From the NCBI RefSeq assembly GCF_057098645.1, contig NZ_CM169472.1: DNA of 64,000 bases. One strand, 5' to 3'. How positions within the stretch are numbered: the first letter of the stretch is position 1; every line of letters starts with the position of its first letter. A program made the translations under genes and the position numbers. This document shows positions 31,966 to 32,823 of this stretch, piece by piece. A model generated the notes under the pieces. It was not told where the DNA came from. It did no database searches and saw nothing but the letters and a program-made list of their open reading frames with translations.

Positions 31966-32289
31966 ATGGAAGCATTAGTAGTAGAGCGAAGCGAGGATGG
32001 CTACTGGACGCACCCAGAATACGCCAACCTGTTTGGGGATAGAGAGGCAATTTCAGCTGATGAGTTCAGATCTTTCTGCAAGCAGCATGGCATTGAATCA
32101 TCAATTGTTGAAATGGAAAACGACAACAATCAAACGGTAATTGACGCGTATTTTGAAGATGGGAATCCAAACATCAGTGGATGGGAGCCAAGCATGCCAG
32201 ATGGAAAAGGATGGTTTGTCGGTTCGATTCACGATACAGAAGACGGTCCGATCTGCGTTTGGTTCAGGAATGTAGATAAGGCCGCATAG
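31966..32289 (+). CDS. Hypothetical acidic protein (ral/sieB slot)
   Basis: 107-aa ORF downstream of N. Confidence 0.45.
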   Translation: MEALVVERSEDGYWTHPEYANLFGDREAISADEFRSFCKQHGIESSIVEMENDNNQTVIDAYFEDGNPNISGWEPSMPDGKGWFVGSIHDTEDGPICVWFRNVDKAA

Positions 32290-32352
32290 TCGGCCTTTAT
32301 TTTTGGCATAAACAAGAGAATAAACACTGCACTGAATTATTTGAGGTGAGAT

Positions 32353-32823
32353 ATGACAAAATCATGGAGCGTACCTTTTCCTGAATCAGAAACTGAACAT
32401 GATGGAATGCCTGTTTTCTGGAGATTCCAAGCGACAGTTGAAGAAGATGGAATCAAAATATTCGCACTTCAATATATAGCTTTTCATCAGACAGAGCATT
32501 ATGCATGGTTGGTTCCTTCGCATTGGATTGTTAATTTTAAACCAGCACCAAATCAGTGGTTACAGGAATGGAAACAAAGGAGAAATAGATATGCAATTAA
32601 GAAAGTAGCAAAAAATGCAGAAAGATCTTTTGCATTCCCGACGAAGAAACTTGCCATTGAAAGTTTATTGCGCCGGAAGAAATACCATTTGATGAGAATC
32701 AAACAAGATTTGGCTGTTGTATCAACTCTTGTTGATGGGATGAAGAATATTGATACATCAACACCAGATATTGAATATAACTTTGGACACAACCAAGAAA
32801 CAGAAAATTGGGTGTTTTATTAG
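32353..32823 (+). CDS. Hypothetical protein (ral/sieB slot)
   Basis: 156-aa AT-rich ORF, no TM segments. Confidence 0.45.
   Translation: MTKSWSVPFPESETEHDGMPVFWRFQATVEEDGIKIFALQYIAFHQTEHYAWLVPSHWIVNFKPAPNQWLQEWKQRRNRYAIKKVAKNAERSFAFPTKKLAIESLLRRKKYHLMRIKQDLAVVSTLVDGMKNIDTSTPDIEYNFGHNQETENWVFY

Follow-up and report, generated by a model that had tools for sequence, protein, structure and literature searches.

Two stacked accessory-gene cassettes between N and ea10 of a 933W-like prophage: an orf184 equivalent and the L0079 gene of 933W

What do two small genes do in the part of a lambdoid prophage where lambda has ral and sieB? Here we address this question for positions 31,966-32,823 of a 64,000-nt stretch of DNA (the window) from contig NZ_CM169472.1 of assembly GCF_057098645.1. 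The window contains a 933W-like lambdoid prophage with its leftward early (pL) operon on the + strand. The prophage genes run in the order cI-type repressor (27475-28179), three small ORFs, an IS3-family element, N, ORF1, ORF2 and ea10, followed by the cIII thermoregulator with cIII and kil, and then by gam, bet and exo. The slot is bounded upstream by an antiterminator N of the 933W/H-19B type (31523-31906, + strand; Pfam N_peptide, E 2e-15), which is 126/127 identical to 933W N, and downstream by ea10 (32974-33342, + strand; Pfam DUF2528, E 3e-45), whose product is 97% identical to lambda Ea10. A preliminary description of this DNA had placed the two ORFs at the ral/sieB-equivalent position of the pL operon, and the flanking N and ea10 genes bear this out. 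The placement is right because the same interval in lambda holds sieB, orf28 and ral, that is, the two genes that had been named and orf28 in addition.

Two co-oriented ORFs of 107 and 156 aa occupy the interval, exactly where they had been described: ORF1 at 31966-32289 and ORF2 at 32353-32823, both on the + strand. Each has an ATG start behind GAGGTGA. ORF1 belongs to the orf184/phrog_1372 family (phrog_1372, E 8e-44), and its homologues (41-98% identity, ~103-112 aa) share 20 invariant columns and the nearly invariant C-terminal motif GWFxGSIHDTEDGPxCxWxR. ORF2 is equivalent to L0079 of 933W and matches phrog_1636 over positions 1-156 of 156 (E 7e-112); its homologues (54-99% identity, 156-163 aa) share 39 invariant columns, and 7 synonymous codon differences and 1 nonsynonymous one separate it from L0079. 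Judged from sequence, both are genuine genes rather than chance ORFs.

The general character that had been ascribed to the ORFs was correct. They resemble neither each other nor lambda Ral, SieB or orf28, and the highest 19-residue Kyte-Doolittle means are 0.30 for ORF1 and 0.56 for ORF2, so that no membrane segment is expected in either and both can be called soluble. ORF2 is the AT-rich member: its GC content is 36.1%, whereas ORF1 has 46.0% and the window as a whole 50.4%. Neither ORF matched Pfam or NCBIfam, PHROGs returned families of unknown function only, and single-sequence and profile searches of the PDB gave nothing below E 0.1. Homology to housekeeping phage functions, which would have contradicted the idea of host-interaction genes, was searched for by family and was found for neither ORF.

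The anatomy of the slot, single-gene cassettes stacked between linkers, is near certain. The left linker, of about 30 nt (GGCAGCAAACCACT-TATTTGAGGTGAGATATG), forms the start of whatever gene comes first in the slot, and its first copy in the window (GGCAGCAAACCACTGTATGAGAGGTGAGATATG; 31936-31968, + strand) supplies a Shine-Dalgarno sequence and a start codon to the cassette that follows. This linker is common to 933W, mEp213, phiv205-1 and the E2348/69 and N39 prophages, where the neighbours on both sides differ; it is kept behind different N alleles and, in mEp213, behind a 74-aa ORF. The right linker is a non-coding stretch of ~120 nt before ea10 (32833-32953, + strand) with several hairpins (RNA fold z -2.16), ending in a hairpin and T-run (32928-32953). 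It comes after ORF1 in mEp213, E2348/69 and N39 and after ORF2 (L0079) in 933W and the window, and lambda has an identical copy of its 43-nt core between ral and ea10. The linker is probably the tL2 cluster of terminators described by Luk and Szybalski (1983). That it is conserved across lambdoid phages with differing neighbour genes could mean that it does more than terminate transcription. Rfam gave no match inside the interval; the nearby matches were the ALIL pseudoknot of the IS3-family element and the cIII thermoregulator only.

The slot had also been called a variable hotspot, and other phages do carry different genes at the same position. It contains L0079 (that is, ORF2) alone, directly after N, in 933W; a 147-aa protein without assigned function in phiv205-1; a 74-aa ORF, an ORF1 homologue and a 322-aa ORF in mEp213; and an Nmad5 protein in SH2026Stx1. 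The last of these, encoded after N, is a 207-aa protein with nucleotide-modification-associated domain 5 (E 3e-71; locus L006, 2562-3185). mEp235 and many Stx1a phages show the same 730-bp match pattern as SH2026Stx1 and, from this DNA pattern, probably have the Nmad5 occupant as well.

In the window the slot is filled twice. A terminator-like hairpin and T-run (32278-32307, + strand; 7 bp with 5 G-C pairs, from a consensus scan) overlaps the ORF1 stop codon and moves with the ORF1 cassette, being kept in mEp213, E2348/69 and N39. Beyond it lies a joint (32329-32355, + strand) composed of GCACTG, with which the right linker begins (6 nt), then 3 nt and a second copy of the left linker (TATTTGAGGTGAGATATG). 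The left linker is present twice because an ORF1 cassette stands in front of an L0079-type cassette, and the two copies form a direct repeat, D3 (31951-31968 and 32338-32355; spacing 387 nt). This duplication of the linker explains the stacking. In megablast comparisons with phages, 933W and its relatives match the region apart from ~390 bp, and the joint is absent from 933W. In the simplest account, homologous recombination at the shared linker would have stacked two alternative cassettes, placing that of ORF1, its own hairpin included, ahead of the L0079-type cassette. This would be classic, ordinary lambdoid mosaicism.

Adjacent, co-oriented genes 63 nt apart whose products carry opposite charge (pI 4.2 for ORF1 and 9.1 for ORF2) might be taken for a single two-gene system, such as a toxin-antitoxin or a sensor-effector pair, of which one partner is acidic and the other basic. 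The distribution of the two genes makes this extremely improbable, as do the terminator-like hairpin that ORF1 has to itself and the duplicated linker that forms the joint between them. ORF1 occurs without ORF2 in mEp213, the E2348/69 prophage and strain N39, behind three different N contexts, and ORF2 occurs without ORF1 in 933W, Min27, phi24B, H-19B, BP-4795 and many Stx1/Stx2 phages. Among 5,426 complete E. coli genomes, ORF2 DNA is present in 592 (~11%) and ORF1 DNA in 40, and 100%-identical matches to both are found in only 7; consistent co-occurrence is thus not seen. The place of ORF2 in the leftward operon also varies, as prophages of Brenneria and Pectobacterium have its homologue just upstream of xis-int, and a Rosenbergiella prophage has it upstream of recT, yqaJ and ssb. 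Treatment of the ORFs as one unit is therefore not borne out: each occurs independently, and they are two single-gene cassettes, not a pair.

The first cassette can be connected to a published phenotype. ORF1 is identical at 105 of 107 residues (98%), over the same length, to AFM76385.1 of mEp213, which a motif search of the supplementary material to Silas et al. (bioRxiv 10.1101/2023.04.06.535777) located as UDP0184, or orf184; it is almost certainly the same protein. In that study orf184 triggered programmed cell death in ECOR59, transposon suppressors of the death mapped to gop and beta, and a laboratory strain given the cloned gop-beta-cII genes of the P4 satellite reproduced the effect. 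The authors place orf184 in an accessory region that also contains ral, an anti-restriction gene; the triggering of cell death is its sole reported phenotype, and their comment on its function reads "???". The gop-beta-cII system, which resides in the P4 hotspot, confers protection from both lambda and P1 (Rousset et al. 2022, PMC9122126). The preliminary description had called both ORFs uncharacterised. That still holds for ORF2, for which no function was found, and no longer holds for ORF1, given the published phenotype of its near-identical counterpart.

We propose that gop-beta-cII acts as a guard that would sense ORF1 or the effect of ORF1. Neither lambda nor P1 is among the ORF1-homologue phage matches listed (60 of the 83 records), which suggests that ORF1 is probably not the sole trigger of gop-beta-cII, or that an effect is sensed and not the protein. 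There are no gop, beta or cII genes in the 64-kb window.

ORF1 homologues are spread far beyond lambdoid prophages. A profile search recovered 986 protein clusters, all unnamed. Only 83 phage records contain a homologue, among them phage-plasmid D6, PY54 and phages of Burkholderia, Pseudomonas, Vibrio and Erwinia; 2,441 plasmid records do, 87% of them conjugative. Longer family members (162-250 aa) have no recognisable extra domain. The protein is acidic (pI 4.20, with 22 D+E against 7 K+R; family pI 4.05-5.38), and its AlphaFold2 model (pLDDT 89.8) and sequence showed no similarity to solved structures.

Four conjugative plasmids were examined closely: an Enterobacter and a Salmonella IncF plasmid and two Klebsiella IncFII plasmids. 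In the Enterobacter and Salmonella plasmids the tra operon includes the ORF1 homologue, between traW and traU. Some IncF plasmids have, in this interval, a variable run of 2-5 small ORFs without assigned function (L003, 4943-7306; L004, 4333-5306); the ORF1 homologue is last in the run, overlapping traU by 4 nt, and the interval looks like a cassette slot in the transfer operon. In the two Klebsiella plasmids the homologue overlaps a gene for a DUF2726 restriction-endonuclease-like protein by 4 nt, within a finO-to-repA block of PIN7, hypothetical protein, DUF2726, ORF1 homologue and PLD-family nuclease (L022, 4993-7955; L023). This nuclease neighbourhood counts as a single observation, since it comes from one epidemic plasmid lineage. 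Such a block on epidemic plasmids could be a module that has escaped recognition, either of nuclease plus inhibitor or of defence and anti-defence. A link between gop-beta-cII and the DUF2726 neighbour was considered and rejected for want of sequence similarity: P4 Gop, beta and cII resemble neither the DUF2726 protein of the Klebsiella plasmids nor ORF1 or ORF2.

How the two genes are expressed bears on whether they serve the lysogen or the lytic cycle. No sigma-70-like promoter was predicted between N and ea10 in a scan that covers consensus sites only, so that weak ones could escape it. As regards the features of a moron, ORF1 has the terminator-like hairpin downstream and, by the same consensus-site scan, no sigma-70-like promoter upstream. 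With no predicted internal promoter and a hairpin after ORF1, both genes would need pL and N read-through, and we suggest that they are expressed from pL as delayed-early lytic genes. Such dependence, as far as a consensus scan can indicate it, counts against a role in protecting the lysogen.

A protective role would mean that the ORFs provide prophage defence or superinfection exclusion in place of lambda sieB or rexAB. Lambda does have sieB in the same interval, the slot is variable in the manner of defence hotspots, and ORF2 is AT-rich like many acquired genes. Even so, we consider protection of the lysogen very unlikely. Besides the lack of a predicted promoter and the co-orientation of both genes in an N-dependent lytic operon, neither ORF has a membrane segment, unlike SieB, and BLASTP against SieB gave a best E-value of 2.0 over 14 residues. 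The PADLOC-DB v2 defence HMMs returned nothing for ORF1 and only Cas1_II for ORF2, at chance level (E 0.017, 12.5 bits). Most of the ORF1 family is found on conjugative plasmids, and the only activity known for it, that of orf184, consists in provoking a defence system rather than in acting as one. Of the preliminary suggestion of host-interaction or defence genes, the defence part is thus not upheld by the PADLOC results, the promoter scan and the plasmid spread, and a host-directed or counter-defence role is the more likely one. Neither ORF is likely to be a defence gene expressed by the prophage, and for both we think early functions aimed at the host or at defence systems more probable than defence encoded by the prophage.

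Better candidates for lysogen defence lie downstream of the cI-type repressor. Directly after it and in the same orientation, at 28240-29703 (+ strand), are a gene for a DUF3024 protein and two further ORFs, of 162 and 206 aa; these last two are the candidates, and they have no meaningful match in Pfam or NCBIfam. In lambda this position is that of rexAB. An IS3-family (IS629-like) element (~29766-31075, - strand) with orfA, orfB and an ALIL frameshift pseudoknot (30626-30742) is inserted between these ORFs and the pL/nutL region, its right end lying ~170 bp upstream of a promoter-like site at 31246-31274. The arrangement in E. coli 14EC001 differs from that of the window, as its IS3 copy is located between N and ORF2 and not upstream of N.

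ORF1 and ORF2 likewise gave no match to lambda Ral (BLASTP) or to the Lar model TIGR03655 (NCBIfam). A 78-aa zinc-ribbon protein encoded in the nin region (23793-24029, - strand) matches TIGR03655 with 62 bits against a cut-off of 39.6, so that the prophage has, away from the N-ea10 slot, a candidate gene for anti-restriction.

For ORF1, we propose a soluble binder, small and acidic, with which mobile elements would act against a host factor or a factor of a rival element, the target most plausibly being a defence nuclease. A nuclease-inhibitor or counter-defence role is our best guess, which we infer from the nuclease neighbourhood on the plasmids together with the acidity of the protein; the chances of a counter-defence role we regard as about evenly balanced. 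Plasmid anti-defence genes usually lie in the early-entering leading region, not in the tra operon. The site of the ORF1 homologue in the IncF plasmids, within the tra operon and outside the leading region, therefore speaks against counter-defence.

The same site would fit a small enzyme or a regulator that serves the mobile element in the transfer, replication or recombination of its own DNA, with the triggering of gop-beta-cII as a side effect. Ten polar residues (R8, H16, E33, D53, S87, H89, D90, E92, C97 and R101) are nearly invariant in 51 diverse family members, and the conserved His, Asp, Cys and Ser among them could mark an enzyme instead of a binder. The IncF copies form part of the tra operon (traW-traU interval), and the phage copies share an operon with recombination genes. 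We nonetheless consider an enzyme or regulator unlikely, and retain the acidic inhibitor as the preferred reading of ORF1.

The second cassette is common and remains a hypothetical gene. ORF2 is 99.4% identical to L0079 of 933W (AAD25424.1), which has the same length. Literature searches on L0079/933W and on studies of Stx phages found no function for it, and it is absent from the accessory-gene library of Silas et al. (bioRxiv 10.1101/2023.04.06.535777). Its distribution is limited to phages and prophages; the 11 'plasmid' matches are all non-mobilizable records. An exhaustive HMM search recovered 88 relatives, none with a Pfam domain; a 940-aa repeat-protein match in this search was spurious. 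The distant relatives (135-155 aa, phrog_13631 and phrog_25384) are found in early-gene arrays of Vibrio and Klebsiella phages. In Vibrio phage vB_Vp_PvVp04_M, an Nmad5 gene lies a few genes away from such a relative.

In ORF2, residues 61-120 form a basic centre (net charge +13). The poor quality of its AlphaFold2 model (pLDDT 61.5) means that our description of the domains, an N-terminal beta-sheet region followed by the basic segment and a long helix, is tentative. We suggest that ORF2 may be a dispensable early protein that binds nucleic acid or a host protein during host take-over; that it is an early accessory factor of this kind is a low-confidence guess.

A DNA- or RNA-binding protein that acts on the phage's own transcripts, and not on the host, would also have a basic centre and a long helix. 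ORF2 might then regulate phage development, as might be expected of a gene found in phages and prophages only, one distant relative of which directly follows a Cro-like HTH gene in a Vibrio phage. The gene has no fixed position in the operon (it can follow N or precede xis-int or recT), it is absent from lambda and many other lambdoid phages, and its product has no recognised DNA-binding domain. On these grounds we regard regulation of phage development as quite unlikely, and keep to a host-directed accessory factor as our guess for ORF2.

Taken together, these observations describe a cassette slot in an N-antiterminated pL operon that contains two stacked, independent accessory genes with the roles proposed above, and we hold this account as a whole to be somewhat more probable than its negation. 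Parts of it are known already: ORF1 is essentially a published protein, ORF2 a long-annotated hypothetical and the slot an ordinary mosaic, and the one functional lead at the locus, the trigger activity of orf184, is in print.

A bolder reading joins the parts. The orf184 family would be an unrecognised, structurally new class of anti-defence proteins, perhaps nuclease inhibitors, of temperate phages, phage-plasmids and thousands of conjugative plasmids, with gop-beta-cII as its dedicated guard; ORF2 would be an independent host-directed early factor with a new fold; and stacking would widen the range of defended hosts that the phage overcomes. We consider this combination possible, though on balance doubtful.

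If the orf184 connection holds, the prophage, like any element that carries orf184, should be aborted in cells with a P4-like satellite encoding gop-beta-cII, which bears on the spread of Stx-type phages among E. coli. The target of ORF1 would matter well beyond phages, as most of the plasmid records with a homologue are conjugative and many are Klebsiella IncFII plasmids. ORF2 is an easy target for knock-out, being common in E. coli genomes and in 933W-type Stx phages.

The locus can be compared with four known systems. L0079 of 933W, which shows no substantive difference from ORF2, has the same position before ea10 and there directly follows N. The lambda ral/orf28/sieB block occupies the same N-ea10 interval and ends at the same right linker; it has no sequence similarity to ORF1 or ORF2, and lambda SieB is annotated on the opposite strand. 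Third is orf184 of mEp213, which agrees with ORF1 in its position in the accessory region directly after N, in its left linker and in its terminator-like hairpin. The linker and the post-N position are likewise the same in E2348/69, N39 and UTME-9. orf184 differs from ORF1 at two residues (S36Y and K81E in orf184) and has a different N allele upstream, and its cassette directly precedes the right linker, whereas the ORF1 cassette of the window precedes L0079.

The last comparison is with acidic anti-restriction proteins of the Ocr/ArdA type. ORF1 shows no sequence or fold similarity to the DNA mimics Ocr, ArdA and Arn, and no restriction-alleviation phenotype has been reported for its family. 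It shares with them a small size and strong acidity (pI 4.2), and its family, like theirs, extends across phages and conjugative plasmids. Ocr and ArdA also trigger cell death in the screen of Silas et al. (bioRxiv 10.1101/2023.04.06.535777), just as orf184 by itself activates an abortive-infection system.
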